From an uncultured Candidatus Saccharibacteria bacterium (GTDB lineage: Bacteria > Patescibacteriota > Minisyncoccia > Minisyncoccales > CSSED10-335): 53,727 nt of DNA. Made by a program: the position numbers and the translations under genes. Below are positions 11,399 through 46,379 of the stretch, one piece after another. How positions within the stretch are numbered: the stretch's first letter is position 1; the number at the start of each line of letters is the position of its first letter. The notes beneath the pieces are model-generated. The model saw only the letters and a program-made list of their open reading frames with translations. It ran no database searches and was not told the origin of the DNA. The stretch covers positions 1 through 53,727 of the forward strand of contig CAZPFW010000002.1 in NCBI GenBank assembly GCA_964586065.1, in the 5' to 3' direction.

Positions 11399-12609
11399 TC
11401 TTCTTGAACTCTTAATTCTTCTTCTATTTTGAGCAGACGATTATACTTGGAGACTCGCTCTCCTCTCGCCGGAGCTCCTGCTTTTATAAAGTCGGACCCT
11501 ATTCCAACCGAAAAATCAGCAATGAAATCATCCGTTGTTTCTCCTGATCGATGAGAAACCATCACTTTCCAGTTGAATCTTTGAGCTATCTTCGCTGATT
11601 CAATTCCCAAACTCACGGTTCCGATCTGATTTAATTTCAATATCATTCCGTTGCAAGCTCTTCTTTCGGCCGCCAACTTGATCCTCTTTGGATTGGTGGC
11701 CAAAAGATCATCGCCTATTATCAATACTCTGTCTGAAACTTTATCAGTCAACTCTTTCCAAAGATCCCAATCATCTTCAGCAAAAGGATCTTCTATTGAA
11801 ACTATCGGGTATCTGTCCAAAATATTAATGTAGTAATCCAAAAGATCTTTACCCGACAAAGAAGCGAAGCCCGTCTCGTATTTACCTTCTCTTAAAAATT
11901 CTCCGGCAGCCACATCCAATCCGATCGAGACTTTCTCGGGTAAAATATTCAGAGCGTCAACCGGATCTTTTATCGGAGGAGCAAAACCTCCTTCATCGCC
12001 GATATTGGTCGCGGAGAGAGAATATTTCGCTTCTATCTTCTTTTTCAAAAGATGATATTCTTCAGAAGCTTGTCGAAGTTGCTCTTTGAAACTCTCCCTA
12101 TCCGGAGATATCATAAACTCCTGAAAAGATAGATCGTTTCCAGCATGAGCTCCTCCGTTTATAAGATTAAAAAACGGTCTTGGAATCGATATCTCTTGAG
12201 CCGAGAGTCCGGATATGTATCTATAAAGAGGTATTTCGATTGACTTGGCCGCCGCTCTACAGACCGCCATGGAAACAGCCAATGTTGCATTGGCTCCAAG
12301 TTTAGAAAAATTATCAGTTCCGTCCAACCTGATCAAGAGATCGTCTACCTCTCTCTGATTGACAACTCTTTGTCCGATAAGAGCCGGAGATATGATCTCA
12401 TTGACATTAGCGATCGCCTTTAAGACTCCCTTGCCAAAAAACCTGTCTTCATTATCCCTTAACTCCAGAGCCTCGTAAGTACCGACTGAAGCTCCCGAAG
12501 GAACCGATGAAACGACTTCAGCTCTTTCAGTGCTAAGTTCCACCTCAATGGTCGGATTACCTCTTGAGTCGATTATCTCTCTCGCTTTAATACTTCTTAT
12601 TCGGTCCAT
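11395..12609 (-). CDS. eno: Enolase
   Basis: DSRGNPTIEV, VPSGASVG, GDEGGFAP, SHRSGET. Confidence 0.96.
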   Translation of the reverse strand: MDRIRSIKAREIIDSRGNPTIEVELSTERAEVVSSVPSGASVGTYEALELRDNEDRFFGKGVLKAIANVNEIISPALIGQRVVNQREVDDLLIRLDGTDNFSKLGANATLAVSMAVCRAAAKSIEIPLYRYISGLSAQEISIPRPFFNLINGGAHAGNDLSFQEFMISPDRESFKEQLRQASEEYHLLKKKIEAKYSLSATNIGDEGGFAPPIKDPVDALNILPEKVSIGLDVAAGEFLREGKYETGFASLSGKDLLDYYINILDRYPIVSIEDPFAEDDWDLWKELTDKVSDRVLIIGDDLLATNPKRIKLAAERRACNGMILKLNQIGTVSLGIESAKIAQRFNWKVMVSHRSGETTDDFIADFSVGIGSDFIKAGAPARGERVSKYNRLLKIEEELRVQEE

Positions 12610-16042: not shown

Positions 16043-17320
16043 TTAATTGTTATTTATACTTCTTCTGAGGAAGGCAGGTGTTTCCCATTTGTCTTCATTC
16101 TCCATTATCTCTTTTTCAACCTCCTCAATAGCTTTCTTAACCTCAAGTGCGTTTCTTCTAATCTTAATATCGACTTTTTCCTGTTGTTTCTCTTTCTTCA
16201 TCGGTTTGACTCTTTTTTTCACAACCCTTTCCGTTTTTTTAACGGGCGACTTGATCGTCTCCTTCTCTTTCATTGTTTTCTTTTCTTTGGGAAAAAGTTC
16301 TTCGGACTGACAACCGACGGCCAACAGAGTGATTCTTATCTTGTTACCGATCTTTGCGTCTTGAGATATGCCAAATATTATCTTGGAATTCTTACCGGCC
16401 AAATTGGTAATCCCTTCCGATATGAAAGATACGTCTTTGAGCCCGAGATTACCGCTCCCCGTTATATTGGAGAGAACACTGTTGGCTCCCTCTATTCCAT
16501 AAGAGTAAAAAAGACTGTGAGTTACTTTCTTTATCGCATCGTCTATCTCTTTAGTTGCGTCAAACTCCGCCGTATTAAGATAAGCAAGCCTACCTCTTCC
16601 GTCAAGAATGGTCTTAAGGTCGGCAAAATCAATGTTGATCAATCCGGATCCGTATATCGTCTCTATTAAACCTTCCAAACTTTTTGATAGATTTCTGTTA
16701 ATAATAGAAAGCGCCTCTTTAAGAGGAGTTTTCTTGTCTATCACTTTAAATATGTTCTCGTTTGGAAGAACTGAAATTGCGTTAAGATTGTTTTTAGCCT
16801 CGGCGAGAGCCTCCAGTGCTATTTCATTCTTTTTAACTCCTTCAAATTTGAAAGGCAGAGTAAATATCCCGTAAGCTATCACTCCCATCTCTTTTGCAAT
16901 CTTGGCAAAAACCGGAACTGCTCCCGCACCGGTTCCACCTCCGAGACAAGAAACAAATATACACATATCTTGCCCTTCCATCATTTTTTTTATCTTCTCT
17001 TTTTCAATATTAGCGGCCTCTCTTCCCAACTCACTGTTCATTCCGGTTCCAAAACCACCGGTCACTTTCTCACCAAATTGAAAAGGCCTAACTTTACCTC
17101 TAATCTCTTTAAGGGCCCTCTTATCGGTATTGGCTGCCACAAAACTGACTCTTTTAATATTGGTTGAGATCTCTTTAACTATTGAGCAACCCCCACCACC
17201 GATCCCGATTATCCTAATCTTAGTGTTTGAGGTTGATCTGTCGAGAGGTGAAAAATTAGAATTCAAATCTTTTTCCTTTTGCTTAACCGAGCTCTTTTTA
17301 CTTCTTTTTTTGGTGGGCAT
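16043..17320 (-). CDS. ftsZ: Cell division protein FtsZ
   Basis: GGGTGAG tubulin-like motif, PFKFEG, INIDFAD T7 loop, C-terminal PAFLRR. Confidence 0.92.
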   Translation of the reverse strand: MPTKKRSKKSSVKQKEKDLNSNFSPLDRSTSNTKIRIIGIGGGGCSIVKEISTNIKRVSFVAANTDKRALKEIRGKVRPFQFGEKVTGGFGTGMNSELGREAANIEKEKIKKMMEGQDMCIFVSCLGGGTGAGAVPVFAKIAKEMGVIAYGIFTLPFKFEGVKKNEIALEALAEAKNNLNAISVLPNENIFKVIDKKTPLKEALSIINRNLSKSLEGLIETIYGSGLINIDFADLKTILDGRGRLAYLNTAEFDATKEIDDAIKKVTHSLFYSYGIEGANSVLSNITGSGNLGLKDVSFISEGITNLAGKNSKIIFGISQDAKIGNKIRITLLAVGCQSEELFPKEKKTMKEKETIKSPVKKTERVVKKRVKPMKKEKQQEKVDIKIRRNALEVKKAIEEVEKEIMENEDKWETPAFLRRSINNN

Positions 17321-17348
17321 ATTTTTTTCTTAATCCATTTATTTCTCC

Positions 17349-17377
17349 ATTTTATAACAAGACATTGTTAAATGCAA
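17349..17377 (-). promoter_or_regulatory. Sigma70-type promoter for the ftsZ operon
   Basis: TTGCAT-17 nt-TAAAAT on the minus strand, about 28 nt upstream of ftsZ. Confidence 0.55.
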
Positions 17378-17401
17378 ACCAACCGATAATTCATATTACA
17401 T

Positions 17402-17430
17402 AAAAAAAGCCTTGAAATTAATCAAGGCTT
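17402..17430 (-). terminator. Rho-independent terminator
   Basis: AAGCCTTGA/TCAAGGCTT 9-bp stem, 6-nt loop, followed by a U-run. Confidence 0.8.
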
Positions 17431-17484
17431 GATACAAGACGAACGTCTTTCAAGATTAAACGGAACGAAAGCTTTCAACTGCTT

Positions 17485-17562
17485 TTAACACAGCACAGCG
17501 CAGAGTCTATTCACTATCTGCCAGCCATCTTTTTCAAGAATCTCAAACTTTACTTCCTTCAT
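17485..17562 (-). CDS. Unannotated 25-aa small ORF MKEVKFEILEKDGWQIVNRLCAVLC
   Basis: SD AAAGGAGGTG (17571-17580) 8 nt before the ATG; terminator downstream. Confidence 0.55.
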   Translation of the reverse strand: MKEVKFEILEKDGWQIVNRLCAVLC

Positions 17563-17657
17563 CCAAACGACACCTCCTTTTGTTTTAGTCAAAGAACAGA
17601 TGAGACGAATCTTTAAGCCCGCTCCCGATTAAGATATTGACTCGGCTGGCTCAAAAG

Positions 17658-18791
17658 TCAGTCTTGTTTAAAATACTTTCTGTTCTTTATCTTGTCAGGA
17701 AGAAGACTGTCTTTGGTATAAGGGTCATAGCCTTCGCCATAACCTGCTTCTCGAGAAGCTCTTCCCGTAGGATTCAATATCTGCGGGGGAATCGGAAGAT
17801 CCCCATATCTTTTAATGTCAGAGATTGCTTCTTTATAGGCGATGTAAGAACTTCTGTCTTTCTTGCAAAGAGAAAGATAAACTGTTCCGTGAGCCAGATT
17901 AATCGACGCCTCGGGAAGTCCGACGCTTTCAACGGCTCTAAAAACTTCATTGGCTACAACCAAAGCGGTGGGTTGAGCCATGCCAATGTCTTCGGAGGCA
18001 AAGACTATCATACGTCGCGCAATCAGTTTCGGATCTTCTCCCGATTCTATCATCCTCGCCAAATAATGAAGAGCCGCATCCGGTTGACTTGCTCTCATGC
18101 TCTTGATAAACGCTGATATCGTATTGTAATAGCCCTCTTTTCTTTTACCGTAAGCCATTGAGCCCGCTTGCATCGCTTCCTTTAGTGTGGTGATAGAAAC
18201 TTTATTGTAAAGTTGATAAGCATTCTCAATCAGACCAAGAGCCCGACGAGCGTCTCCTTTCGAAGCCTCTGCAAGCCATTCTTTCGCATCTTCTTCAACT
18301 TCAATCTCCAAGCGATCAATTATCTTTATCAATTCTTCTTCAGATAATGGTTTCAGTAAAAATATCAAACAACGTGAAAGAAGAGCCGGTATAACTTCAA
18401 ATGAGGGATTCTCCGTAGTTGACCCCACCAAGAATATCTCACCGGATTCTATGAAGGGTAATAAAAAGTCTTGTTGAGCTTTGTTAAATCGATGGATTTC
18501 ATCCAAAAATAGAATCTTTGGATCACCCTTCGAATCCTCTCTTATTATCTCTTGGACCTCTTTCTTACTCGCGGAAACGGCGGATAGTTCATATACCAAA
18601 GCATCGGAGTTTTTTAAATATATTTTGGCTAATGTTGTCTTTCCCGATCCGGGAGGTCCCCAAAGAATAAATGATGTCGCTCTCCCCTTCTCTATAATCA
18701 GCCTCAACGGTTTTCCCTCTCCGACTAAGTGTTCTTGTCCTACAAAGTCATTGAGATCTTCTGGCCTTATCTTAAAAGCAAGTGGTTTCAT
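17658..18791 (-). CDS. rarA: Replication-associated recombination protein A (RarA/MgsA AAA+ ATPase)
   Basis: GPPGSGKTT, LDEIHRFNKAQQD, TTENPSF, SEDIG. Confidence 0.95.
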   Translation of the reverse strand: MKPLAFKIRPEDLNDFVGQEHLVGEGKPLRLIIEKGRATSFILWGPPGSGKTTLAKIYLKNSDALVYELSAVSASKKEVQEIIREDSKGDPKILFLDEIHRFNKAQQDFLLPFIESGEIFLVGSTTENPSFEVIPALLSRCLIFLLKPLSEEELIKIIDRLEIEVEEDAKEWLAEASKGDARRALGLIENAYQLYNKVSITTLKEAMQAGSMAYGKRKEGYYNTISAFIKSMRASQPDAALHYLARMIESGEDPKLIARRMIVFASEDIGMAQPTALVVANEVFRAVESVGLPEASINLAHGTVYLSLCKKDRSSYIAYKEAISDIKRYGDLPIPPQILNPTGRASREAGYGEGYDPYTKDSLLPDKIKNRKYFKQD

Positions 18792-18802
18792 CTTTTTAAA
18801 GA

Positions 18803-19609
18803 TTAAATGTCTTCTACTAAATAATTTCCTTTTGTTTGAGCGTAGAGGGTTTGTACTTCATAGGCTGTTAGGGCTCTCGAATAGATGCGGACGTCGTCGA
18901 TGAGGCCGTTGAAATTACTACCGATGTAAACAATCCCATTCATCTCAATCGTTTTGTTTATTGAAAAGTCTGTTTTGCTTTGATCAATTTTTCCGTCAAC
19001 ATAAATATCCACTGTTCCGCCACTGTCCCAAGTAAACATTACATAGTGCCACCTATTATCATTAATCGCAGTTATTCCCGTTAAAGATCCTTCGTGATCG
19101 TCCCATAAATAAACTCTGATTCTTCCGGCGTTTGATTCAACGTTCTCCATGATTGCAAACAAGAATCCCGGATACCATCTTCTTACTATTGAATCATACC
19201 GATTACCTTCACCAGTTCCCAATGTTTTAATCCAAGCTCCAACCGTCATACCCTGGGTTGTGTGTGAAAAATTGTTTATCTTTACATTGTTGCTCCCGTC
19301 AAAAGAGAGTGAATATCCATTACTTGAAGGACTATCGCCTACGTAATGGGATCCACTCAATGTCCCGTCATTGCCGTATCCGGAAGAGTCTTTAGCTACA
19401 CTTCCCGTTCCTTCATCAAAGTTCCACCAACCTACTAAGTCAGCTCCCAAGAGATTGTGCATGTTTGATTGAAAGGAGAGAGCGTTGGATATCTTGGCTT
19501 GTTCTCTGGCTCCTGTCAGATTGGAGAAGACTATGCTGGCTAAAAGGGCTAAGACTGCTACTACTACAAGTAGTTCTACAAGGGTGAAGGCTTTGTCTTT
19601 CTTTATCAT
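18803..19609 (-). CDS. Pilin-like + LamG protein, copy 2 (last of the tandem array)
   Basis: KA|FTLVELLVV; LamG motifs. Confidence 0.9.
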   Translation of the reverse strand: MIKKDKAFTLVELLVVVAVLALLASIVFSNLTGAREQAKISNALSFQSNMHNLLGADLVGWWNFDEGTGSVAKDSSGYGNDGTLSGSHYVGDSPSSNGYSLSFDGSNNVKINNFSHTTQGMTVGAWIKTLGTGEGNRYDSIVRRWYPGFLFAIMENVESNAGRIRVYLWDDHEGSLTGITAINDNRWHYVMFTWDSGGTVDIYVDGKIDQSKTDFSINKTIEMNGIVYIGSNFNGLIDDVRIYSRALTAYEVQTLYAQTKGNYLVEDI

Positions 19610-19703
19610 TGTTCTTCTGCTAAGTAGTTGTCTTTTGTTTGAGCGTAGAGGGTTTGTACTTCATAGGCTGTTAGGGCTCTCGAATAGATGCGGACGTCGT
19701 CGA
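19413..19703. repeat. Array junction repeat 1 (3' end of one gene fused to the 5' end of the next)
   Basis: 291 bp with 1 mismatch versus 21046-21336; 19503-19703 identical to 20315-20515. Confidence 0.97.
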
Positions 19704-20421
19704 GTTTTCCATCAAATGTATAGGATCCTCCGGGATTGTAGTTCCCGATTATGTATAACTTCGATCCGGTACCCATCGCCTCGGACCATTGGGCCCCCAA
19801 TTCTCCGTCGAGATAAGCCTTGGCATTTGTTCCGTCAGTTGAAAGAATCAAATGATGCCAGTTTCCGTCATGAGTATCTCCACCGAAGTTATTCGCGCTA
19901 CTGCTGCTTCCGTTGGTATCACAACGAACCTGACCGCTTATATAACTGTAACAAAAAAGAGCTCCTTGACCTCCAAAAACCATCTGCGACCCCGACGCAA
20001 AAGTCGAGTTATACCATATCGATATCGTCGCTCCGACCCCCGGACTAAAATCATAAGAGCCAAGACTTACATGATAACTCCCTCCTCTTACATCTATTCC
20101 CGATCCTCCGGCAACCGGACTATCCGATGTACATTTAGCCCCGTTATTGGATCCGACCGGACCTCCTGCATAATTCTTTATTGAAGCAGGAGCAAGACCT
20201 CCTTCGGATACACCTTGACAATCTTCATTAAAGTTCCACCAACCAATCAGGTCCGATCCCATCAGATTATGTACCTGAGACTGAAAAGCTAATATGTTGG
20301 ATATACGAGCTCCCTCTCTGGCTCCTGTCAGATTGGAGAAGACTATGCTGGCTAAAAGGGCTAAGACTGCTACTACTACAAGTAGTTCTACAAGGGTGAA
20401 GGCTTTGTCTTTCTTTATCAT
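19606..20421 (-). CDS. Pilin-like + LamG protein, copy 3
   Basis: Same leader; diverges after TGARE; ATGA overlaps with neighbours. Confidence 0.9.
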   Translation of the reverse strand: MIKKDKAFTLVELLVVVAVLALLASIVFSNLTGAREGARISNILAFQSQVHNLMGSDLIGWWNFNEDCQGVSEGGLAPASIKNYAGGPVGSNNGAKCTSDSPVAGGSGIDVRGGSYHVSLGSYDFSPGVGATISIWYNSTFASGSQMVFGGQGALFCYSYISGQVRCDTNGSSSSANNFGGDTHDGNWHHLILSTDGTNAKAYLDGELGAQWSEAMGTGSKLYIIGNYNPGGSYTFDGKLDDVRIYSRALTAYEVQTLYAQTKDNYLAEEQ

Positions 20422-20515
20422 TGTTCTTCTGCTAAGTAGTTGTCTTTTGTTTGAGCGTAGAGGGTTTGTACTTCATAGGCTGTTAGGGCTCTCGAATAGA
20501 TGCGGACGTCGTCGA
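20315..20515. repeat. Array junction repeat 2
   Basis: 201 bp identical to 19503-19703 (offset 812). Confidence 0.97.
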
Positions 20516-21242
20516 TGAGGCCTGTATAGTAGTAGTTTTGACTGACGGCTCTTCCAATAAAATTACCGTCACATTCAGATAGGCCTAATAAGCCGACCCC
20601 GTGATTTAAAGAAGTTCTTCTTGCAACAGACACTCCATTTTCATAAATCTCTTTAACTCCATTATTTCCGTCAAAACTGAAGACGAAATGAACCCAACCT
20701 TCACCCTCTATAATCGGAATTGCAAAATCATCTGCGGTACCACCATCGGGCTTTCTTGTTCTCCAAAGATTATTACCATGTATACTTGATCTCCAATTAC
20801 TTCCACTTTGAAAAGAGAACATTCCCGAGAGATCTTCTGTGGCAGGCTTGGCCCAAATTGACATTGACCAATAATAAAAGTCTGTTGTTAAGATATTATC
20901 TTTTCCTAAATCTACATAACTATTAGACCCATTAAACTCCAATGCCTTACCACTTGTCCCTGGTACACCATCCACTCTGGTAGCTCCAACGATAGTTCCG
21001 TCATTACCATATCCGGAAGAGTCTTTGGCTATGTTACCTGTGTCATCATCAAAGTTCCACCAACCTACTAAGTCAGCTCCCAAGAGATTGTGCATGTTTG
21101 ATTGAAAGGAGAGAGCATTGGATATCTTGGCTTGTTCTCTGGCTCCTGTCAGATTGGAGAAGACTATGCTGGCTAAAAGGGCTAAGACTGCTACTACTAC
21201 AAGTAGTTCTACAAGGGTGAAGGCTTTGTCTTTCTTTATCAT
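20418..21242 (-). CDS. Pilin-like + LamG protein, copy 4
   Basis: Prepilin-type leader and LamG motifs. Confidence 0.9.
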   Translation of the reverse strand: MIKKDKAFTLVELLVVVAVLALLASIVFSNLTGAREQAKISNALSFQSNMHNLLGADLVGWWNFDDDTGNIAKDSSGYGNDGTIVGATRVDGVPGTSGKALEFNGSNSYVDLGKDNILTTDFYYWSMSIWAKPATEDLSGMFSFQSGSNWRSSIHGNNLWRTRKPDGGTADDFAIPIIEGEGWVHFVFSFDGNNGVKEIYENGVSVARRTSLNHGVGLLGLSECDGNFIGRAVSQNYYYTGLIDDVRIYSRALTAYEVQTLYAQTKDNYLAEEQ

Positions 21243-21349
21243 TGTTCTTCTGCTAAGTAGTTGTCTTTTGTTTGAGCGTAGAGGGTTTGTACTTCATAGG
21301 CTGTTAGGGCTCTCGAATAGATGCGGACGTCGTCGATGAGGCCGTTGAA
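21046..21349. repeat. Array junction repeat 3
   Basis: Matches 19413-19703 (1 mismatch, at 21117) and 161-249. Confidence 0.97.
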
Positions 21350-22123
21350 ATAACTCGTATTGTCATTTCTTGAACCAATTCGAACGTTATCGGCCAGAGT
21401 GGCGGGAGAGTTCTTACCGTAATAAAAATTATCTACTCTGTCTCCGTTTAAGTAAATATACCAATTGAGATCGCCTCCGACACGCGTAAAAATAAAATGA
21501 TACCATTTATCAGCCAAAAGAGAGTCGGATGACGAAGTGTAGCTGCTCCTTCTGTGAGAATCTGAAGTTGTGTGCATAACTGTTACTATTTCGCTCTCCA
21601 CCAAGCTTGTTACCGATCCAAACGATATTGAAAAATATCCCGAAGTTCTCTTACCTAAATCTATTGGTGTTGCAGATGAGCTAAGTTCAGTAATCGGAAC
21701 ATTTGGCTTAATCCAAAAACTGATTGTTTCGGCATATTGATAGATGTCTCCCACATCCACGTAATCATTACTCCCATCAAACTTTAAAGAATTACCGCTG
21801 GGAGACGGAGTATCGTTATTCCATCCAGATGAGTCATTGAAGTTGAAGTTCTTGAGAATCCCGTCATTACCATATCCGGAAGAGTCATGAGTCACAGTCC
21901 CCGTTCCATCATCAAAGTTCCACCAACCTACTAAGTCAGCTCCCAAGAGGTTGTGCATGTTTGATTGAAAGGAGAGAGCGTTGGATATCTTGGCTTGTTC
22001 TCTGGCTCCTGTCAGATTGGAGAAGACTATGCTGGCTAAAAGGGCTAAGACTGCTACTACAACTAAAAGCTCTACTAGTGTGAAGGCAGATTGTTTCTCT
22101 TTGGTTTTTAGAGCTGAAAACAT
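21239..22123 (-). CDS. Pilin-like + LamG protein, copy 5 (first of the tandem array)
   Basis: SA|FTLVELLVV; LamG motifs. Confidence 0.9.
   Translation of the reverse strand: MFSALKTKEKQSAFTLVELLVVVAVLALLASIVFSNLTGAREQAKISNALSFQSNMHNLLGADLVGWWNFDDGTGTVTHDSSGYGNDGILKNFNFNDSSGWNNDTPSPSGNSLKFDGSNDYVDVGDIYQYAETISFWIKPNVPITELSSSATPIDLGKRTSGYFSISFGSVTSLVESEIVTVMHTTSDSHRRSSYTSSSDSLLADKWYHFIFTRVGGDLNWYIYLNGDRVDNFYYGKNSPATLADNVRIGSRNDNTSYFNGLIDDVRIYSRALTAYEVQTLYAQTKDNYLAEEQ
21910..22096. repeat. 5' constant block (leader type A) of copy 5
   Basis: 2 mismatches versus 777-963; 21980-22094 identical to 24731-24845. Confidence 0.95.
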
Positions 22124-22144
22124 TTAGAATTAACGAGATATTCA

Positions 22145-23461
22145 CTATTTGACACATCTGAAGCCGGTAATAGAGTGAATCACGTGAGATCCAGTTCGAA
22201 AGTTTATTGAATAGACTCCCGCATAACTTCCGTCACTCCATCTACCCCCTCTTCTGAACACTCTGTCTTCATCATTTCTGATAAAGATCTTCCCCATTCC
22301 TTGGGCGGTTCCCCATTCATCTTTTGATGCTCTGTAAAAGTCATAATCCCATTTATCTCCGTAATTATCTATCTCAAACCATTGGAGCCAAGTTCCCGAA
22401 TCCTCTCCTCCCACAAGAAGATCTTTTATCGGAGTGGTATTTAATTGTTCATTGTAGCTTGCGAAATCATCGAGCCATTCCCAAACATTTCCGGAAAGAT
22501 CCCAAATAATCTCTCCGTTAGTCAATTTAAAAACTCTTTTTTCTTTTCCTTTACCTTCATTTTCGGCCGGTAACGGTCCTTCTTCGAGAGGAGCAAAAGA
22601 ATTTCCTTGTATTAAAGAACCTTTTCCCGGAACTCCGCCAGTCCAATTTTCTCCGATCGCTTCAATGTTTCTTGCGATTGTCATCCATTGAGCATTATTT
22701 ATCAATTTTGCATTAACCGATTCACAAGCATCTTTAACATCATAACCCTCAGGGTCATACAAACTCAATCCAACCCAAGGCCTCGCTTCAGAAACCGAAA
22801 CCGGTATGTAATTGTCGTCGGCCCATGATATCGGCGGGCGAAGAGAACATCTATCGATATCCCAAAATCCCCCGCAACCATCCATGGATAGTTCCCCCGT
22901 CTCGGTATTTAAAGCTTTTGCTTGATACTTCATTACGCAAAAATCATCAGTCTCATAGAGCGGATTGCCCGGAACTGAAACATATCCTTCCGGACAATCT
23001 ATCTTTTTATTCCCAATGACTATTCCTATCTTTGATCCGTCATAAGACTTGGCTATCCAATACCCTGTTTCAGAACCATTTTCGTTTAAGCCCGGATCTT
23101 TTGGAATGGAAGATATCTTATCCGGAACGAGAGAACAAAGATTCACTTTCCCCGAACAAAAACCGGGATCTATCTCTCCGCAAGAGCTCGATCCGGTATT
23201 GCATATCTCCTTCAAAGTGGTATCAATTTCCAATGACGTCCCTGTGCCAGGATTGGTTATCTCGGCAGCATACAAAAGATTTCTATCCGACTCTCTAATC
23301 TCATTCCACTTCTTATTGGTTTCTTCTGAAAGCTTCTCAGCTCTTTGAGGAACAAGAACAACGGCGATTGAGACTATCGCCACAAACAATATGATCAACG
23401 AGAATACGATCAAAGGCTTCTCTTGCCAACTACTCTTAATTGAAAGTTTTTCTTTGTTCAT
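22145..23461 (-). CDS. Membrane-anchored pilin-like domain fused to an FGE-sulfatase/C-type-lectin-fold domain
   Basis: Hydrophobic N-helix, LVPDKISSIPKDP pilin-like motif; DLSGNVWEW, RGGRW, GFRC FGE-like motifs. Confidence 0.75.
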   Translation of the reverse strand: MNKEKLSIKSSWQEKPLIVFSLIILFVAIVSIAVVLVPQRAEKLSEETNKKWNEIRESDRNLLYAAEITNPGTGTSLEIDTTLKEICNTGSSSCGEIDPGFCSGKVNLCSLVPDKISSIPKDPGLNENGSETGYWIAKSYDGSKIGIVIGNKKIDCPEGYVSVPGNPLYETDDFCVMKYQAKALNTETGELSMDGCGGFWDIDRCSLRPPISWADDNYIPVSVSEARPWVGLSLYDPEGYDVKDACESVNAKLINNAQWMTIARNIEAIGENWTGGVPGKGSLIQGNSFAPLEEGPLPAENEGKGKEKRVFKLTNGEIIWDLSGNVWEWLDDFASYNEQLNTTPIKDLLVGGEDSGTWLQWFEIDNYGDKWDYDFYRASKDEWGTAQGMGKIFIRNDEDRVFRRGGRWSDGSYAGVYSINFRTGSHVIHSITGFRCVK

Positions 23462-23472
23462 ATGTCAATGGA

Positions 23473-23874
23473 TTAGTTGTTTGATTCTTTTTTAATAATA
23501 TTCCAATGGAACAGATAGAGAGGAATACCAACTAAAATTGCCGCCAAATTACTTGAAGCCTCTCTGTGACGCCTTGCTTTTTGCGGATCCAACTCACGAG
23601 CAAGCTCCCAATAATCGTGATCAGCAATGATTGATTCAAGTTCTCTTAACTCGTTTTCGATCAATACCCTACCCTCTTCAGACAAACCTCTGATATCTTC
23701 TGGGGATTTATAAGTCATGCGAGAATAGAAAAGATTCTCATTGTCAGCATCGGTAAAAATAAATTCTCTTAATCCCATATCTAAAAATCGAACCACTCCG
23801 ACTACAGCAAGGATCAGTCCGATCGAAGAAAAGAGATAGAGATAAACTTTTCTTATCAAAGATTGTTTTTCCAT
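23473..23874 (-). CDS. Small membrane protein (DUF5671-like)
   Basis: IRKVYLYLFS...; LAAILVGIPLYLFHW two-TM pattern. Confidence 0.6.
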   Translation of the reverse strand: MEKQSLIRKVYLYLFSSIGLILAVVGVVRFLDMGLREFIFTDADNENLFYSRMTYKSPEDIRGLSEEGRVLIENELRELESIIADHDYWELARELDPQKARRHREASSNLAAILVGIPLYLFHWNIIKKESNN

Positions 23875-23977
23875 AAAATCATTTTATCATATTAAGAAAA
23901 ATACCGCCACATTATCATAATTTAAAGAATTGAATAAGAGGATAAAGCTTGTTGGCATTCAATCAAAATCCTTATAA

Positions 23978-24868
23978 TTAATCACCTCTTGTTAAATAAC
24001 CTCCGCTTCCTTGAGCAAACAATGATTGTATTTCAGAAATCGCCAACGCCCTGGAATAGATACGAAAATCATCTACCTGCCCGTCGGTAATCCATCCGTA
24101 CATTGTCCCTAAAGACAAGGTTGTCTGACTGACAGCACTTCCGGTAATCGATGATATGTCTAAATGATGGCTTTGCTCAATACCATCGACAAAAGAAGAT
24201 ACAACCTTCCTGTCTCTATCAACCGTAAAAACCAGATGCACCCATCTTCCAGTAAGATTTTCGGGTCTGTTTTCTGCGTTAAATCTAAGAGTTGTACGAA
24301 GCAGATTAACTCCATCGGCCAAGCAAAAATCAATTCCGTTATCACGAGGCCCGTGTCCAAAATCCCAACCCTTTCCTCCTGATTGATAACAGTTCGGGTT
24401 TGATCTTTTTACCGCACCAAAAGTCTTTGGGTAAATAAAATCTCTGTAAAAGCCCCAAAAAGAGATTGTGAAACTCTCAAAATCTAAAGAATCGTTGTAA
24501 TTCAGTGTTAAAGAGCGAGTCGTCTCTCCATCAAAGTCAACGCATTTTCCCAACGAATTAATTGAGTTATCCGCAAACGTGGTTCCGTTATTGTTTCCGT
24601 GGTTATTGTAACCCGAAGAATCGCAAACTTTATTACTTCCGCATGAAGGACTCTCTCCATGATCAAAATTCCACCAAACAACCAAGTCTGCCCCGAGTAT
24701 TGATTGAACTTGCGATTGAAACGATAAGATGTTGGATATCTTGGCTTGTTCTCTGGCTCCTGTCAGATTGGAGAAGACTATGCTGGCTAAAAGGGCTAAG
24801 ACTGCTACTACAACTAAAAGCTCTACTAGTGTGAAGGCAGATTGTCTTTTTGAAAGAAAAGACCTCAT
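23978..24868 (-). CDS. Pilin-like + LamG protein, copy 6
   Basis: Type A leader identical to copy 5 over 115 bp; diverged 3' end (DDFRIYSRALA). Confidence 0.9.
   Translation of the reverse strand: MRSFLSKRQSAFTLVELLVVVAVLALLASIVFSNLTGAREQAKISNILSFQSQVQSILGADLVVWWNFDHGESPSCGSNKVCDSSGYNNHGNNNGTTFADNSINSLGKCVDFDGETTRSLTLNYNDSLDFESFTISFWGFYRDFIYPKTFGAVKRSNPNCYQSGGKGWDFGHGPRDNGIDFCLADGVNLLRTTLRFNAENRPENLTGRWVHLVFTVDRDRKVVSSFVDGIEQSHHLDISSITGSAVSQTTLSLGTMYGWITDGQVDDFRIYSRALAISEIQSLFAQGSGGYLTRGD
24731..24845. repeat. 5' constant block of copy 6
   Basis: 115 bp identical to 21980-22094. Confidence 0.95.
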
Positions 24869-24878
24869 AAGCTATCGA

Positions 24879-25838
24879 TTAAGGTTGAAATAAATCCTCG
24901 GGTTCGAATTGTACATCTTCAATTCCGGTAAATTGCTTCGCTGTTTTTTCTATCTGCAACCAAAGAATCCCACTTCTGCATGATCCTCCCGATGTTTTGA
25001 AATAGGGGTCGTCAAACTCAAGAGTTAAAATATTATCAACTATCTTAGCTCCTTTCAATTTCAATCCATCAAGAGGAAATTCGGTGGTTATACCTCTGTC
25101 CTTCTCTTCCGGAAGAATCTCTCCTTTAATCAGCAAGTTTATCGCATCTTGAACCGGAGTTATGCTGATCGGAACCTCTCTTGAGACTGCGACCAAGCCG
25201 GCTTCGCTACAGATGACATTATCAGCATCATCTAAATCTTTCAGCGGATCGTAATAGTAGAGATTTATCGTCTTCATTTGAGGTTTCTTAAATTTAACGG
25301 GTATTTTTAATTCATCATCATTCTCTTCCAATCCCGATGGATTGTCTCTTTCAAGCACCAAGAAACCAGACTCTGTCAAAGAATCGAATTCAAGCCTCCC
25401 TTCAAATGAGATAAAGTCTTCTGTCATCCAATCTTCATTGGTTGAGGCAAATCCTTTTGCCATCAAATTGCCTTTTTCGTCTTCTATTCTTATAGGGAAG
25501 TCCCCTTCAAAAAACCAATATCCTCTGGCCTTCCCGAGAACCGTCAAAGGTGATGACACTTGAGAATATGGTTGAGGGTGATTTACGGTAATAAGGTCTT
25601 TTTTGGAGTTGACTTTGTCTATCAATTCTTCGTCCATCTCATCAACTTCTTTCTCAAAGATTCTCCCATCAGGAGTCTGACACGTTTCCGGATAAGTCTG
25701 CAGTATCGGGTAACCCTCTTCAACACACTCTTCAAACGAATCCACCGTCTTAATTGTTTTTTTCTCTTTTTTGAAGAGATAAAAACAACTGACAAAAACG
25801 GATAACAGAATAACGAGAAAAAAGATTTTTCTTTTCAT
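24879..25838 (-). CDS. Membrane-anchored surface protein with Ig-like (Gmad2-type) and GerMN domains
   Basis: SFEECVEEGYP..YPETC module, VSSPLTVLGKARGYWFFEGDFP, GGSCR. Confidence 0.7.
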   Translation of the reverse strand: MKRKIFFLVILLSVFVSCFYLFKKEKKTIKTVDSFEECVEEGYPILQTYPETCQTPDGRIFEKEVDEMDEELIDKVNSKKDLITVNHPQPYSQVSSPLTVLGKARGYWFFEGDFPIRIEDEKGNLMAKGFASTNEDWMTEDFISFEGRLEFDSLTESGFLVLERDNPSGLEENDDELKIPVKFKKPQMKTINLYYYDPLKDLDDADNVICSEAGLVAVSREVPISITPVQDAINLLIKGEILPEEKDRGITTEFPLDGLKLKGAKIVDNILTLEFDDPYFKTSGGSCRSGILWLQIEKTAKQFTGIEDVQFEPEDLFQP

Positions 25839-28940: not shown

Positions 28941-29578
28941 TCAATTCTTATCAGCTTTTAATCTATTGATCTCGTTTTTGATTTCATCAATTACTTCAAG
29001 GTTATGAATCATTTTATCTTTACCTTTGGTTATTGAGATGATATAGAATACTTTTCCGCCATATCTTGCATTAAATTTCTCATGAGTCTTTTTTTGTTGC
29101 TCTCGTTCATTGATTATTTGAGTAATATATTCATACCCAGCAGGTTTTATCTGAAGGCCAATATATTTCCCATTTATTTTAATAAAATAATCAACATTAT
29201 AACCTCTATCCCATTCATCAGGAGCAGGCTCTATCTTCACTCTAAGTTTTCTTTCAAGTTGGCCGTAGATTGTTTGGATTTCTGATTGATAACCGTCAAA
29301 AGTTCTGTTAATCACCAGATTGTAGACAAAGTTTATACAATCTTTCTCGGTTATGTCTTCTATTTCAGCCTTGCAAACATCAGTGACCTTAATAAACAAA
29401 ACTTTCCCAAGCTGTTCAAGATGCTCTTTTGAATAAGCTTTTTCCAAATAAAATTCCTCCCAATCTTTTAGGGACTTGGGAGCACATTTTCTTATTAATT
29501 CTGCAACCGGACCAACCTTTTTTTCCTGGTTAGACCCCATCTCATATTAGCTTGATTTAGAATCCATTCTTTGGCCAT
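28941..29578 (-). pseudogene. MjaI-family type II restriction endonuclease, frameshifted at an A7 tract (29518-29524)
   Basis: ATG 29578 lies 1 nt after the MTase stop; frame 0 stops after 27 aa; the -1 frame carries the rest, including the VDY..GLQIKP PD-(D/E)xK-like motif. Confidence 0.7.
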
Positions 29579-29579
29579 A

Positions 29580-30866
29580 TTATTGTTGCATTAGATTTAA
29601 AAACTTTAATTTATATTTATAGTCAAAACTATTATCAACATCAACTAATCCATTTTTTATCAAGTGAGCATTGATAAAAGTTTTATTTTGTAGATACAGA
29701 TAGCAAAATAAGTTGTTCTTATTATCATATTTTCTCTCATCAAACTTGATGAAAACTCGCTTGTTCTCCAATTTAGATTGGAGAAACTTAGTTGCTCTAT
29801 CTGTCATCTCTTTCTTCGCCTTAACCCCGATTAATCTGATTGTCAAATCATTACTTAACAACAATCTCTCGGGATTTATAATCTGTTTTACGGAATATAA
29901 ATCAATTCTTTCATTATTTGTAGAATCAATCTTCGAGCCAAATCTTAATTTTTTGGGATCAACTTTTCTATTAAATTTTATCGGGTCCTTAAAAATATAA
30001 GGTGATTCCAATATTTTGCTTTTGTAATCAGTCTTTTCATCTTTTCGCTCAATAATTTCAAACGTTGTTTCTCTCAATAACTCTTTTTGATCCAAACCTA
30101 TCTTTCTTTTTATTATCGGTAGAAATTTTTTATTTATTTCATAGCCAACAGAATGACGATCTAAATTTTTAGCTACGAGAGTTGTTGTACCACTGCCTAA
30201 AAATGGATCTAAGACGGTGTCGCCAACAAAGCTGAACATTTTTATGAGTCGTTTTGGTAATTCTTCCGGAAACATGGCTAAATGTTTGTCTTGTTTTGCC
30301 CCACTGAAGTTCCAGTGTCCGGTAAAATACTGATTCCATTCATCTTTAGACATTTTAGATTTTTCTTTTATCTCTCTTGACACCGCTGGTGCACTCCCCA
30401 ATTTTCTAAAAATTAAAATGAACTCGTAGTCAAGTTTGATTATTCCATTTCTCGGATATGGAAAACTACCCATTATGGTTGCTCCACCAGTTGTGTTCAT
30501 TGTTGTAGTTTTTTGCCAAATAATCGCTCCCATATAATCAAAACCTATGGTTTCACAAAACTTTATAATTTCAGTTCTAATAGGGATGATTTTATAACGT
30601 CCATAATAGACGGAGCGAGCAAATTGATCACCAATATTTATGCAGAGACGACAACCGTCATTCAGAACTCTGTAAGATTCTTCCCAAACCAAATTAAGAT
30701 TATTGATATATTCTTCATAGCTATCATTAAAGCCGATTTGGGAGTAATTGCCATAATCTTTCAATTGCCAATATGGTGGTGAAGTAACGATAAGATGAAC
30801 GGACTTATCTTTTAATTCCGCCATACTTCTTGAGTCACCGATTATGATCTTATGATTAGTCTCCAT
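29580..30866 (-). CDS. Beta-class N4-cytosine/N6-adenine DNA methyltransferase with a C-terminal thermonuclease(SNase)-like domain
   Basis: TSPPY precedes DPFLGSGTT; C-terminal IRLIGV...YLYL..FINAHLIKNGL. Confidence 0.88.
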   Translation of the reverse strand: METNHKIIIGDSRSMAELKDKSVHLIVTSPPYWQLKDYGNYSQIGFNDSYEEYINNLNLVWEESYRVLNDGCRLCINIGDQFARSVYYGRYKIIPIRTEIIKFCETIGFDYMGAIIWQKTTTMNTTGGATIMGSFPYPRNGIIKLDYEFILIFRKLGSAPAVSREIKEKSKMSKDEWNQYFTGHWNFSGAKQDKHLAMFPEELPKRLIKMFSFVGDTVLDPFLGSGTTTLVAKNLDRHSVGYEINKKFLPIIKRKIGLDQKELLRETTFEIIERKDEKTDYKSKILESPYIFKDPIKFNRKVDPKKLRFGSKIDSTNNERIDLYSVKQIINPERLLLSNDLTIRLIGVKAKKEMTDRATKFLQSKLENKRVFIKFDERKYDNKNNLFCYLYLQNKTFINAHLIKNGLVDVDNSFDYKYKLKFLNLMQQ

Positions 30867-40444: not shown

Positions 40445-41582
40445 AGTACCCCAAAGCTCTTAACCCCGGTAACTCTGTTCCGGCCATAAACTCCAACATG
40501 GCGCCGCCTCCGGTAGATATGTGATCTATAGAGTCTTTGACATTAAACTTATTAATCGCTATTCCGGTATCTCCTCCGCCGACCACCTTAAACGCTCTGT
40601 GATTCAAAGCCATCGCTTTAGCTATCTCTCGCGTGCCTCTTTCATAGCGTTTATCCTCAAAAAGACCCAAGGGTCCGGCCCAGATCATCATCTTAGCCTC
40701 ACTGATTATCTTAGTAAAGATCTTTATCGTCTCAGGTCCTATATCGTATATCCCTTCGTCGCTTTTAAGATCGGCCGGCGAATCGATTCTGACACAATTG
40801 TCGCAACTGTAAGGAGAGACGACCAGATCAACCGGAAGATGAATCTTGGGTGAAGTTATCTCAACATCTTTGATTTCATTGACAGTCTCTTCGTTCGGCC
40901 AAGGTCTGTTATGACAAATCCCTTTGACCACCAGTATCTCATTAGCAACTTTTCCTCCTAAAAGAAGATGATCCGAGTTCTTCAAAAATGATTTGACAAC
41001 TCTGATCTTTGAGGCAACTTTAGCTCCTCCGATAATTGTTACCATCGGATGCCAAGGGTTATCCTTTACTTTTGAGAGAACGGCAACTTCTCGAGCCAAT
41101 CTGAATCCGGCGCAAGAAGGTAAAATTGAAGGCAGTGCCACTATTGATGCGTGCTTTCTGTGAGATACTGAAAAAGCCTCATTGATATAAAAATCGGCTA
41201 AAAGAGCCAATTCGCCCGCAAAAAAATTACTGTTAACCGTCTCTCCTTCAAAAAGTCTCAGATTCTCAAGAAGAAGAATGTCTCCGTAATCGGATCTTCT
41301 GATCGCTTTCTCCATCAAATCCCCTAACTCTTTGATAAATATAATCTTCTTGGAGAAAGTCTTTTCTAAGAAGGGGACAATCTCTTTCAAACTCTTCTTT
41401 TCTCCCGCATGACTAATAATCACCGCTCTTCCACCGTCATTGATTACTTTCTCTATAGTCGGAACAGATTCTCTTATTCTTAGATCATCTAAAGGCTTTC
41501 CTTCATGATCGATTGAAACATTAAAGTCACACCTTATTAAAATCGTCTTCTTGTTAAAATTAAAATCAGCGGGTGTCTTCAT
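40431..41582 (-). CDS. pgk: Phosphoglycerate kinase (probable start ATG 41582)
   Basis: RCDFNV, LLENLR, GGAKV, STGGGAMLEF. Confidence 0.9.
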   Translation of the reverse strand: MKTPADFNFNKKTILIRCDFNVSIDHEGKPLDDLRIRESVPTIEKVINDGGRAVIISHAGEKKSLKEIVPFLEKTFSKKIIFIKELGDLMEKAIRRSDYGDILLLENLRLFEGETVNSNFFAGELALLADFYINEAFSVSHRKHASIVALPSILPSCAGFRLAREVAVLSKVKDNPWHPMVTIIGGAKVASKIRVVKSFLKNSDHLLLGGKVANEILVVKGICHNRPWPNEETVNEIKDVEITSPKIHLPVDLVVSPYSCDNCVRIDSPADLKSDEGIYDIGPETIKIFTKIISEAKMMIWAGPLGLFEDKRYERGTREIAKAMALNHRAFKVVGGGDTGIAINKFNVKDSIDHISTGGGAMLEFMAGTELPGLRALGYYGKD

Positions 41583-43152
41583 CTTTTTTTCTTTTACCAA
41601 GCGAACTCTTGAGAGCACTTCTTAACTTATCGATTTCTATCTCTTTCTTTTCCTTCTTTTTATCGGGCTTGCTTTTTTTCAATGAAGAGAAAAGGATCGG
41701 CTTTTTCAGCACTTCTTTCTCTAATGAAATCTCTGGAGTCTTTTTAGTCTTCTTTCTGCAACTCTTACAAAGAACCGGTCTCCCCGGTTGAGGTTCAAAA
41801 ACAACTTTGGTTTTCCTGCCGCAATTGGAGCAAATCGCATCATAGAGAGGTTGAGCCGGTAAAGAAGTCAGAGGAACCGACTCGGGTCCAAACCATCTTC
41901 TTATCTTGTCCTCAATGATTTCTCTTGGCATTCCATATCTCTCCCTTGACACTTTCATTATCTTGTCTTTGGGACTCTCTTCTTCCAGTCGAGGTGGAAC
42001 CAATGTTTCAGCTGAAAACGGATTACTAGTAAGACCATCTATCATTAATTTTACGTAAATATTATACTTTGGAAGGTTCACCAGATCTGTTGCAGAGAAT
42101 TCGGGACTGAACTCTTTTTCTAAGAACTCCGCGTCTTCGGGTCCGACTCTGAAAGATATCAATGTTCCGATATTGCCAAAAACAGCGTCTCTTACAGGCT
42201 CTTCCATTTGGGCGATATACTGATGTCCCAATGTAAGAGAGAGTCTATACTTTCTGGCCTCGGATAGAATTGTGACAAATGAACTGGTGGCAAAATTTTG
42301 AAATTCGTCGACATAGAGAAAGAAATCTTTCCTCTCCTCTTCGGGAACATCGACTCTCGACATTGCGGCCAATTGAAGCTTGGTGATAACTAATGATCCC
42401 AATAATTTTGAATTATCTTCACCAATTCTTCCTTTTGATATATTAACAATGAATATCTTCTTCTCATCCATTATCTTTCTGATATCTATGGTTGATTTTG
42501 TTTGACCGACGATATTTCTTATCAACGGATTGGATATGAATTGTCCGATCTTGTTCTGAATTGCACCAGTTGCCTCCGATTCATACTGTTGACTGTACTT
42601 GGCATATTCTTGAGTCCAATAATTCTTAACGATCGGATCGGTAACATTATCCACAACTTTCTTTCTGAAACCCGGATCGGCAAACATTCTGTTTATTCCT
42701 AAAAGGGTCGAATCGGGATACTCAAGAAGAGCCAATATCGCATTGTTTAAAATATATTCCATTCGAGCCGACCAGACATCGGGCCATATCTTCTTAAAGA
42801 CTCCCATCAATCCTGAAGATATCAGATGACGGTGAGACGGATCAACGTTCTCCATAACGTTAAAAGCTATCGGATGAGACAGATCGGCCGGATTGAAATA
42901 GACTACATCGTTTATCCTGTTTGACGGAACAAAATCAATCAACTTTTCAGCCGCTTCGCCGTGCGGATCGATAAAACCGATACCGTTGCCGTTTTGAAGA
43001 TCTTGAATCGCCATATTCTCCATAAGAGAGGTCTTTCCGACACCGGTTTTTCCGATAATATAAAAATGACGTCTTCGATCGTCAAGCTTTATCCCAAACT
43101 TTTTTCTCTTGTTTCGGAAAGTGGTTTTACCAAAAAAAATTATATTCTTCAT
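41566..43152 (-). CDS. TraG/TraD/VirB4-like (HerA clade) P-loop ATPase with a C-terminal CxxC-x17-CxxC zinc ribbon
   Basis: GKTGVGKT, LYVDEFQNF, SEARKY; CSNC...CKSC. Confidence 0.85.
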   Translation of the reverse strand: MKNIIFFGKTTFRNKRKKFGIKLDDRRRHFYIIGKTGVGKTSLMENMAIQDLQNGNGIGFIDPHGEAAEKLIDFVPSNRINDVVYFNPADLSHPIAFNVMENVDPSHRHLISSGLMGVFKKIWPDVWSARMEYILNNAILALLEYPDSTLLGINRMFADPGFRKKVVDNVTDPIVKNYWTQEYAKYSQQYESEATGAIQNKIGQFISNPLIRNIVGQTKSTIDIRKIMDEKKIFIVNISKGRIGEDNSKLLGSLVITKLQLAAMSRVDVPEEERKDFFLYVDEFQNFATSSFVTILSEARKYRLSLTLGHQYIAQMEEPVRDAVFGNIGTLISFRVGPEDAEFLEKEFSPEFSATDLVNLPKYNIYVKLMIDGLTSNPFSAETLVPPRLEEESPKDKIMKVSRERYGMPREIIEDKIRRWFGPESVPLTSLPAQPLYDAICSNCGRKTKVVFEPQPGRPVLCKSCRKKTKKTPEISLEKEVLKKPILFSSLKKSKPDKKKEKKEIEIDKLRSALKSSLGKRKKDEDTR

Positions 43153-45473: not shown

Positions 45474-46379
45474 CTATCTTTGTGTTCTAAATTTTAAATT
45501 GGACCAAGAAACTAACAAAGTTCCGGCCAAAAAAATTGATGAATAAGTTCCTAAAATAACTCCTGATATCATGGCAAAAATAAACCATCTTAAAGTTTCT
45601 CCTCCGAAGAAAAATATCGAAAAGAGTACTATCAGAGTTGTTAGAGATGTACTGATCGATCTGCCAAGAGTCTCATTAATGCTTTTGTTGACCACTTCAT
45701 CAAATCGTAATTTTGGGTTTTTAGGACCGACCTCTCTAATACGGTCAAAGACCACCACGGTATCATTTATTGTGTATCCAAGCACTGTTAAAAGAGCCAC
45801 TGCTATCGGTATCGTCATCTGAACGTTATAATACTTTCCCAAAACAACAAAGATTCCCAAAACAATCAAGACATCGTGCAAAAATCCCAATCCCGCCGCT
45901 ATCACTCCATATTGCCATGATTTAACGTTAGCTCCACCGGTTCCGCTGAAAGTAATCGTGATATAAAGAGCAATCGCCAGAGAAGACAATACTATACTCA
46001 AAAGCGCTTTTTGACCCAACTCCTTACCAATAGTAGGTCCGATAGACTCAAATCGATTCTCGGTTGCTCCAACAAGAGCCGACTTGACTTCTTCATACTC
46101 TTTTTGTCCCAAATCGGACATTCTGATAACAAAACCGTTATCATCAATCGGTTGAATCACGACTTCTCCAATGTCAAGATTCGAGAGAGTCGCTCTCAAA
46201 TCTTCGATTTGAGGTCTCTCGTTTTGATACTCAATCTCCATAATACTCCCTCCGGTGAATTCAATGCCCGGATTAACTCCTATCGTCACAATAGCAAATA
46301 TGCTTGCTATAATAAGCAATCCCGAAATCGCATAACATAATTTTCTGTATTTAAAAAAAATAATCATATTCAAATCCAA
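45474..46379 (-). CDS. secF: Protein translocase subunit SecF
   Basis: GIEFTGG, GYTINDTVVVFDRIRE, GTYSSIF. Confidence 0.95.
   Translation of the reverse strand: MDLNMIIFFKYRKLCYAISGLLIIASIFAIVTIGVNPGIEFTGGSIMEIEYQNERPQIEDLRATLSNLDIGEVVIQPIDDNGFVIRMSDLGQKEYEEVKSALVGATENRFESIGPTIGKELGQKALLSIVLSSLAIALYITITFSGTGGANVKSWQYGVIAAGLGFLHDVLIVLGIFVVLGKYYNVQMTIPIAVALLTVLGYTINDTVVVFDRIREVGPKNPKLRFDEVVNKSINETLGRSISTSLTTLIVLFSIFFFGGETLRWFIFAMISGVILGTYSSIFLAGTLLVSWSNLKFRTQR

Follow-up and report, generated by a model that had tools for sequence, protein, structure and literature searches.

A 53,727-nt stretch of contig CAZPFW010000002.1 (positions 1-53,727; GenBank assembly GCA_964586065.1) of an uncultured Candidatus Saccharibacteria bacterium, called the window below, carries at positions 18803-22123 of its minus strand four co-oriented tandem open reading frames (ORFs) that encode modular type IV pilins with a lectin-like head. 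We consider it likely that these genes are a lineage-specific tandem array whose ends have been homogenised and whose units have been gained, lost and reassorted, forming a standing repertoire of adhesins. The family is real and dynamic, adhesin-like in character and of a known evolutionary kind. The genes stand in the order G4-G3-G2-G1 with an ATGA stop/start overlap at each boundary. G4 (21239-22123, 294 residues), the first, has a long unique leader (MFSALKTKEKQSA, followed by FTLVE), a prepilin N-terminus, a LamG core and a tail ending in KDNYLAEEQ; its ORF matches PF07963 at 30 bits and PF13385 at E=3.9e-22. The internal units are G3 (20418-21242, 274 residues), with the leader MIKKDKA before FTLVE and a KDNYLAEEQ tail, and G2 (19606-20421, 271 residues), whose N-end loses identity to the other genes early, at a mosaic breakpoint at 20315. 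The last unit, G1 (18803-19609, 268 residues), has a MIKKDK leader and a distinct 'terminal' tail, GNYLVEDI. Three dispersed paralogs with the same family ends lie on the same strand as the array. Paralog A (136-990) is alike at both the N- and C-end, has part of its early core in common with G3 and belongs to repeat family D3. G5 (23978-24868), 1.85 kb upstream of the array, and Z (52868-53671) are alike at the N-end and divergent at the C-end.

The array is held together by three junction repeats, all read on the minus strand, whose extents we determined by ungapped extension outward from the three ATGA junctions. J1 (19413-19703) runs from the C-end of G2 through the ATGA overlap into the N-end of G1, with weaker similarity out to 19362-19722. 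J2 (20315-20522), the shortest, joins the C-end of G3 to the N-end of G2 in the same manner, and J3 (21046-21336) joins the C-end of G4 to the N-end of G3. J1 and J3 align over 291 nt with 1 mismatch, while J2 is 100% identical to J1 over 201 nt (20315-20515) and to J3 over 208 nt (20315-20522). The start-to-start periods are 812 and 821 nt. A 32-nt core of the junction occurs in 3 copies in the window and in none of 100 shuffles. A sequence-only reading of this stretch had proposed junction repeats at 19413-19703, 20315-20515 and 21046-21336 with these two periods, each connecting the stop region of one gene to the ATGA-overlapping start of the next; the extension reproduced the coordinates exactly, and the arrangement holds at 3/3 junctions. 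That reading had also described a repeat-spacer-repeat layout. The spacers are indeed distinct LamG cores (22-35% amino acid identity), but the repeat is no special element and is found on solo genes as well. Each junction repeat simply combines the 3' end of one paralog with the 5' end of its successor, both of them conserved in the family.

The flanks of the array display the two halves of this composite separately. At its 3' edge, the C-end of G1 stands alone (18810-18919, minus strand; repeat family D2) and contains the C-end 70-mer exactly; at its 5' edge, the N-end of G4 stands alone (about 21858-22100, minus strand; repeat family D1) and contains the N-end 56-mer exactly. The 56-mer is identical in 7/7 paralogs of the window and the 70-mer in 5/7. 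All direct repeats of at least 40 nt within the window are pilin gene ends. Tandem Repeats Finder returned nothing, the period being above 500 nt and the cores unalike. A shufflon or invertase of the R64 pilV or Moraxella piv type was considered and rejected, as the 53.7-kb window contains no inverted repeats of at least 40 nt, and none relevant was found in the array region; no recombinase or integrase domain was found among the window ORFs scanned or annotated.

The strongest contrast in the family is that between its ends and its cores. We compared codon-aligned paralog pairs, using A, G1, G3 and G4 pairwise for the ends and all pairs for the cores. The ends have amino acid identities of 0.94-0.98 and third-codon-position identities of 0.88-0.98, whereas the cores reach 0.22-0.35 and 0.25-0.40, respectively, the latter being about random. 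Within this one genome, the near-identical stretches extend over about 190-290 nt at the 5' end and about 100 nt at the 3' end. A static family, in which the ends are identical through strong purifying selection or recent duplication and the array is fixed with no ongoing recombination, would have some points in its favor. The conserved parts coincide with what are probably constrained elements of the fold (helix alpha-1, residues 10-56; the first strand, residues 58-62; the final strand and helix, residues 240-269), they are conserved at the amino acid level across 65 homologs, and the array order is the same in all assemblies of the strain. Nevertheless, we judge such a family very unlikely. 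Since the cores are saturated, recent duplication cannot explain the identical ends. Protein-level purifying selection is insufficient because it does not fix synonymous sites, and here third positions are near-identical and exact runs of 56-70 nt recur in 5-7 genes. In another species, contig L097 (GCA_036681025.1) encodes nearly the same N-terminal peptide with different codons: at sites encoding the same amino acid, 55% of N-end codons differ between the window and L097, against 16% among the window paralogs. The ends have therefore been homogenised within lineages, and no general nucleotide-level constraint holds them. Taken at the level of sequence, these comparisons indicate concerted evolution of the ends via gene conversion or unequal crossing-over.

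Mosaic genes also argue against a static family. Mosaicism was judged here by the combinations of segments. In the first 30 nt past GCCTTCAC, the window paralogs fall into two haplotypes, one in G1, G2, G3 and Z and the other in A, G4 and G5. The downstream divergent blocks separate G2 and G5 from the rest, and together with the 5' haplotypes all four combinations are present, as in a four-gamete test. The identity of G2 to G1 and G3 is 100% over about 104 nt and about 67% beyond that point, and G5 matches G4 without a difference for about 113 nt before it diverges. In related contigs, an early-core segment of about 100 nt (containing NFDDEDNRYKDLSGYGNNGSCTSCPTLVDGVP) occurs in front of at least four different later cores and behind several leaders, and the genes L013_1066 and L099_10858 have 392 nt in common at 99% and are unrelated beyond. 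The mosaic patterns of the window genes are confirmed by independent contigs at 99.6-100%. On a finer scale, 11/14 differences between the window and contig L005 fall in its partial G3, with 0 in the 807 nt of G1, and five of these substitutions lie within 19 nt of the G3 early core (20946-20964). The cluster looks like a short conversion tract; no donor for it was found among the sampled paralogs.

The cores themselves do not behave as rapidly generated variants. Between the window and L111, a 95.8% relative, the ratio of nonsynonymous to synonymous substitution rates (dN/dS) is 0.12 for G5 and 0.14 for G4, or 0.11 and 0.15 for the cores alone; the cores are conserved, functional and under purifying selection. 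Hypermutation of the cores was rejected on the strength of these orthologous ratios (0.11-0.15). The differences among paralogs are of old standing and have been reassorted; they do not arise de novo at the locus. A diversity-generating retroelement was likewise rejected: the window contains no reverse transcriptase, its sole RVT_3 match being an RNase H-like protein, its only repeats are pilin ends, and its cores differ throughout their length and by indels. Antigenic variation of the Neisseria type, in which silent donor cassettes non-reciprocally convert one expressed pilin gene, would account for the mix of conserved and variable segments and for the mosaic sequences of these pilins. We regard it as extremely unlikely here, since none of the seven copies is truncated and each has its start codon, leader and signal peptide, the orthologous cores are under purifying selection, the internal genes are set for translational coupling by their ATGA overlaps, and neither strand of the window contains a (G3+N1-7)x4 motif.

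We compared the array with contigs from the same strain, from close and more distant relatives and from another species; all structural comparisons rest on metagenome assemblies and contigs. In the organism and its close relatives we counted 12 ATGA junctions in at least six arrays, 11 of them with the exact 32-mer. The remaining one, in L099, has a single mismatch to the 32-mer and the leader MIKKEK. Throughout the contigs examined, a gene with a KDNYLAEEQ tail is always followed by a gene that begins with MIKK[D/E]K at a -4 overlap. The first genes of arrays have long, unique leaders, and the last genes have other tails (GNYLVEDI, KYLSEKID/AN/VN) followed by spacers of 117-184 nt. An exact 32-mer scan of metagenome contigs from the Joint Genome Institute (JGI) placed the junction module beside other, different cores. 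In L097, positions 1-7281 contain at least eight LamG pilin genes in a row, with less homogenised ends and a junction of another kind, an 8-nt overlap. Arrangement in tandem is a habit of the whole family. The particular array in the window is lineage-specific: three distant relatives keep the order DUF5671, FGE-like, RarA, FtsZ (with an FGE-like protein 56-63% identical to that of the window), and there the FGE-like gene abuts rarA at 0-63 nt, without a pilin array between them.

Array content is not invariant across relatives, although the cases at locus A, at locus Z, in L013 and L099 and in L111 possibly reflect mis-assembly at repeats. At locus A, contig L098 is 98.5% identical to window positions 158-8265, and departs from the window at the edge of a 92-nt C-end repeat, where the same junction leads on into two or more additional pilin genes. 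In the window and in L101, L102 and L103, by contrast, what follows gene A is a spacer and then a 295-residue pilin. L098 and L103 belong to one metagenome-assembled genome (MAG), which suggests that two co-existing strains contributed the two versions. At locus Z, the 96% relative L015 differs from the window by one additional unit, which separates the MRIDRK leader from the Z core; the break falls within the N-end repeat. L013 and L099 differ in having two genes and one gene, respectively, between orthologous flanking pilins. L111 retains the order G5-DUF5671-FGE-like-G4, followed by a G3 that is truncated mid-core and joined to unrelated DNA. This G3 (L111 5335-5844, corresponding to window 21242-20802) adjoins glycosyltransferase, peptidase S11 and tRNA synthetase genes on the opposite strand. 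Either the contig is chimeric or the locus was truly rearranged, leaving a pseudogene behind. In L099, a 634-kb JGI contig, the third array unit (11703-12481) is frameshifted near its C-end such that the conserved FNGLIDDVRIYSRAL is out of frame, representing either a pseudogene or an indel error.

Turning to the proteins, all seven genes match PF07963 (25-33 bits; cutoff 21.2), with TIGR02532 also above its cutoff, and all seven match PF13385 (Laminin_G_3) over profile positions 1-151 with E-values of 2.7e-13 to 6.2e-24. The four array genes match the full PF13385 profile at E = 1e-19 to 6e-24. NCBIfam concurs on the prepilin domain. The N-termini have the features of a class III signal, in which KDKA is followed by FTLVELLVVVAVLALLASIVF (a short charged leader, Glu at +5 and a hydrophobic alpha-1N). 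An AlphaFold2 model of G3, calculated from 65 homologs (predicted local distance difference test (pLDDT) 81, predicted template modelling score 0.75), has a helix at residues 10-56 that runs straight into a beta-sandwich at 58-249, followed by a C-terminal helix at 255-269. In this model, at the same pLDDT, there is no separate pilin beta-sheet between alpha-1 and the LamG sandwich. A Foldseek search against the PDB retrieved concanavalin A (ConA)-like lectin jelly rolls, namely the clostridial neurotoxin Hc N-subdomain and carbohydrate-binding domain 4 of the arabinanase AbnA, at probability 1.00. Because of the domain matches, the G3 model and the Foldseek matches, we assign the array proteins as modular type IV pilins with a lectin-like head. 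At E <= 1e-10, sequence searches returned 313 homologs; their records bear the name LamG domain-containing protein and the label Minisyncoccales, and so place the organism in Minisyncoccales (Patescibacteria). A profile search of genome contigs with the family alignment yielded only distant pilins of the PVC group (Planctomycetota, Verrucomicrobiota) and of the candidate phyla radiation (CPR). The degenerate pattern AFTL[VI]ELLV gave no species-level relatives among the matches listed, and an exact look-up of the Z protein found no match.

The expression, processing, assembly and ligand binding of these pilins are predicted from the sequences and the model. The four array genes would be co-transcribed and translationally coupled. 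A prepilin peptidase would cleave their products, and the shared helix would bring them into the same pilus, where different LamG heads may bind different glycans or other ligands on the surface of host cells. At the DNA level, homologous recombination, comprising gene conversion and unequal crossing-over, would homogenise the ends; it may be RecA-dependent or of a slippage type. Such recombination would begin in the identical ends and halt in the diverged cores. As by-products, whole in-frame units would be gained or lost, and leaders, early-core segments and cores would be reassorted among loci. The organism would then keep its whole set of adhesins in place and reshuffle it slowly, rather than switching between single adhesins. 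A promoter and terminator scan found nothing inside the array above the shuffle expectation, its sole match being a terminator-like hairpin at 17407-17430, after rarA, and an Rfam search of 17300-25000 gave no match.

Several observations weigh against this reading. The order G4-G3-G2-G1 is constant in every assembly that covers at least two of its genes, among them all those of the near-identical strain, and no recombination event in this array was seen directly. Repeats of 200-290 nt are beyond the span of short reads, as evidenced by runs of N inside junctions, and the 589-kb assembly of the strain carries 1427 N just upstream of Z (L104 4274-5700), leaving the context of Z uncertain; some of the inter-strain 'indels' may be short-read mis-joins at repeats. 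The residue at -1 of the cleavage site is Ala, where Gly is usual. No pilus machinery (PilB, PilC, PilM-O), prepilin peptidase or recA was found in the 53.7-kb window. Finally, J3 is 99.3% identical between the window and L111, with the adjacent cores at 94-96% and the G5 core at 90%, such that the junction is better kept between strains than neighbouring synonymous sites. Concerted evolution of a simple neutral kind leaves this conservation partly unexplained. A further step in identity to L111 lies nearby, where the Gmad2/Germane gene (24879-25838) is 100% identical over 960 nt and the adjoining G5 core (24090-24659) 90.4%, which suggests, on the sequence comparison, recombination between strains or faster turnover at pilin loci.

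The assembly-related points raise the question of whether the array is real while most inter-strain gains, losses and mosaics are artefacts of short-read assembly or binning across repeats of 90-290 nt. The 589-kb European Nucleotide Archive scaffold of the same strain contains the same array with 10-N gaps inside two junctions, in addition to the gap upstream of Z, and many other contigs end exactly at repeats. Both ends of the window (1-135 and 53669-53727) adjoin pilin repeats; the window is probably a whole contig broken at them, and the fusion of a leader to Z at its end may be a collapsed array. The two versions of locus A in one MAG and the joining of mid-G3 to unrelated DNA in L111 would also fit such artefacts. 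Against this, the break at locus A lies at a 92-nt repeat, which 150-nt reads can span, and the two versions differ by 1.5% along 8 kb and are therefore from different strains. The absence of the array from the three distant relatives involves no repeat, the break in L111 is not at one, and the mosaics of the window genes recur in independent contigs. The JGI contigs L005 (G3-G2-G1-RarA, 99.6%) and L002 (G4-G3-G2, 99.8%) confirm the array order. We thus regard a largely artefactual origin of the variation as unlikely, and retain the homogenised and reassorted array as the preferred reading.

The geometry that the sequence-only reading had drawn from the junctions is sound: wherever two junctions, or the conserved ends of any two paralogs, cross over, the outcome is an in-frame hybrid gene and a change in copy number. 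Its expectation that relatives would differ is borne out for array content, as far as metagenome contigs are reliable at the repeats, but not for the order of G1-G4, for which no alternative was found among the assemblies examined. The same reading went further, proposing that recombination between junctions excises circles of about 0.8 kb that donate cores to the dispersed loci, and that such changes create no pseudogenes. The latter does not hold in general, given the G3 truncated mid-core in L111 and the frameshifted unit in L099. The circles found no support. Their expected products are equally accounted for by plain gene conversion or by unequal exchange between sister chromatids. In its full form this would be a cassette system, with circles of 0.8 or 1.6 kb, each with an intact pilin gene, re-integrating at dispersed loci and so shifting cores about with appreciable frequency. 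It draws on the fixed junction module (AEEQ tail, ATGA, MIKKDK leader), which has 0-1 mismatches in at least six arrays, on the array site being empty in relatives, and on loci where 'unique leader, core X, junction, core Y' faces 'unique leader, core Y' in a relative, the expected product of a Campbell-type integration. However, unequal sister-chromatid exchange or gene conversion yields these products without a free circle, and such a circle would lack an origin or dedicated recombinase, with no integrase, recombinase or transposase found in the window. Integration by homology also cannot explain the first arrival at a site without a pilin gene, and the G array is invariant in the assemblies seen. 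We therefore hold a cassette system to be improbable. A related proposition is that the junction is a selected recombination module, with LamG heads gained, lost and swapped between the pilin arrays often enough to produce host-range variants inside one population, possibly via unit circles; to this we assign a small chance. The array with homogenised ends and gradually reassorted units remains our preferred interpretation.

The array lies between two conserved neighbours. Downstream, rarA/mgsA (17658-18791, minus strand) begins 11 nt after G1; it is conserved in synteny and lies outside the pilin system. Upstream is the FGE-like gene (22145-23461, minus strand), which encodes a 438-residue membrane-anchored protein with an FGE-sulfatase/C-type-lectin-like domain (PF03781, a weak match). 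Many homologs of this protein have a prepilin N_methyl domain, and it may be a member of a second, degenerate family of modular pilins. The window as a whole is a housekeeping stretch that includes glycolysis genes, ftsZ, rarA, nfo, secA/D/F, lepA, murJ, prfB and a restriction-modification pair. The Pfam annotation of the identical contig gives the latter (28941-30866, minus strand) as RE_MjaI together with an N6_N4 methyltransferase that bears an SNase-like domain. SecD (46370-48043, minus strand) contains a PPIC-type peptidyl-prolyl isomerase (rotamase) domain inserted at residues 150-232. At 41566-43152 (minus strand), a TrwB/TraG-like coupling ATPase with a treble-clef zinc finger adjoins a 440-residue protein of no family (43159-44481, minus strand), and the two may be part of a conjugation-like type IV secretion system of Patescibacteria.

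CPR bacteria, or Patescibacteria, are thought to be host-attached, and their type IV pili are the leading candidates for the structures by which hosts are recognised. If the preferred reading is true, the combination of one assembly helix with many lectin-like heads, whose genes stay able to recombine through their identical ends, would be a concrete candidate determinant and diversifier of host range in an uncultured lineage of Minisyncoccales; if the junction were in addition a selected module, it would amount to a cassette system for host recognition in CPR bacteria. A practical consequence is that the repeats break or mis-join short-read assemblies, and the pilin repertoires of CPR MAGs have probably been under-counted.

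Full-text literature searches retrieved no paper that describes this LamG pilin family or the junction module in Patescibacteria. Comparison with known systems reveals several partial counterparts. The pilE/pilS system of Neisseria is likewise a pilin family with conserved and variable parts in which recombination generates mosaics. Its donors are promoterless, 5'-truncated and silent, and conversion depends on a guanine quadruplex, whereas here all copies are complete and the window has no quadruplex motif. The babA/babB/babC adhesin genes of Helicobacter pylori have near-identical 5' and 3' ends and divergent middles, and inter-locus gene conversion makes chimeras and changes which adhesin occupies which locus. 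Unlike the present family, they are not pilins, and their loci are dispersed, not tandem, with locus-dependent expression. The adhesion pilins PilA1-6 of the archaeon Haloferax volcanii have an identical N-terminal hydrophobic domain and different C-terminal parts, the shared N-terminus presumably allowing one machinery to assemble many adhesive subunits. They have no LamG heads, and we know of no report of a gene-spanning junction or tandem ATGA arrays among them.

In domain architecture, the array proteins are closest to modular lectin pilins. The combination of N_methyl and PF13385 is among the 15 commonest modular pilin architectures, with CPR examples listed (Raynaud et al. 2021, PMC8179133), and pilins are enriched in CPR (PMC6744442). 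Streptococcus sanguinis PilC is a characterised pilin adhesin with a lectin module (Shahin et al. 2023, PMC9934059). As in the PilC type, the class III signal and alpha-1 of the array proteins lead into a ConA-like/LamG domain, and the proteins are predicted to act as adhesins on pili. They differ in that LamG directly follows alpha-1 in the model, without a separate pilin beta-sheet or immunoglobulin (Ig) module, and in being about 270 residues long, with many paralogs per genome in tandem arrays. The CPR 'Pam' pilus, described in a preprint, was considered and set aside as unrelated, being a donor-strand-exchange pilus.

The genetic organization finds its nearest match in the lpl genes of Staphylococcus aureus, tandem surface-protein paralogs that are reshuffled by recombination at a conserved segment (Tsuru & Kobayashi 2008, PMC2568036). 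Both systems consist of co-oriented tandem paralogs with a conserved nucleotide segment per unit, which is the site of homologous recombination in lpl and would be so here, and in both a unit spanning two adjacent genes emerges. Strains differ in lpl by the gain, loss and shuffling of units, as relatives appear to do here on metagenome contigs. The evidence for lpl is from finished genomes, and that presented here from metagenome contigs. The two arrangements are mirror images: in lpl the conserved segment lies mid-ORF and the variable unit spans the gene boundary, whereas here it is the conserved segment that crosses from one gene to the next, and the core of the ORF that varies. Homogenised ends and reassorted cores are already well known from other surface-protein families, and the array places the same mode of evolution in the pilins of a little-studied symbiont.

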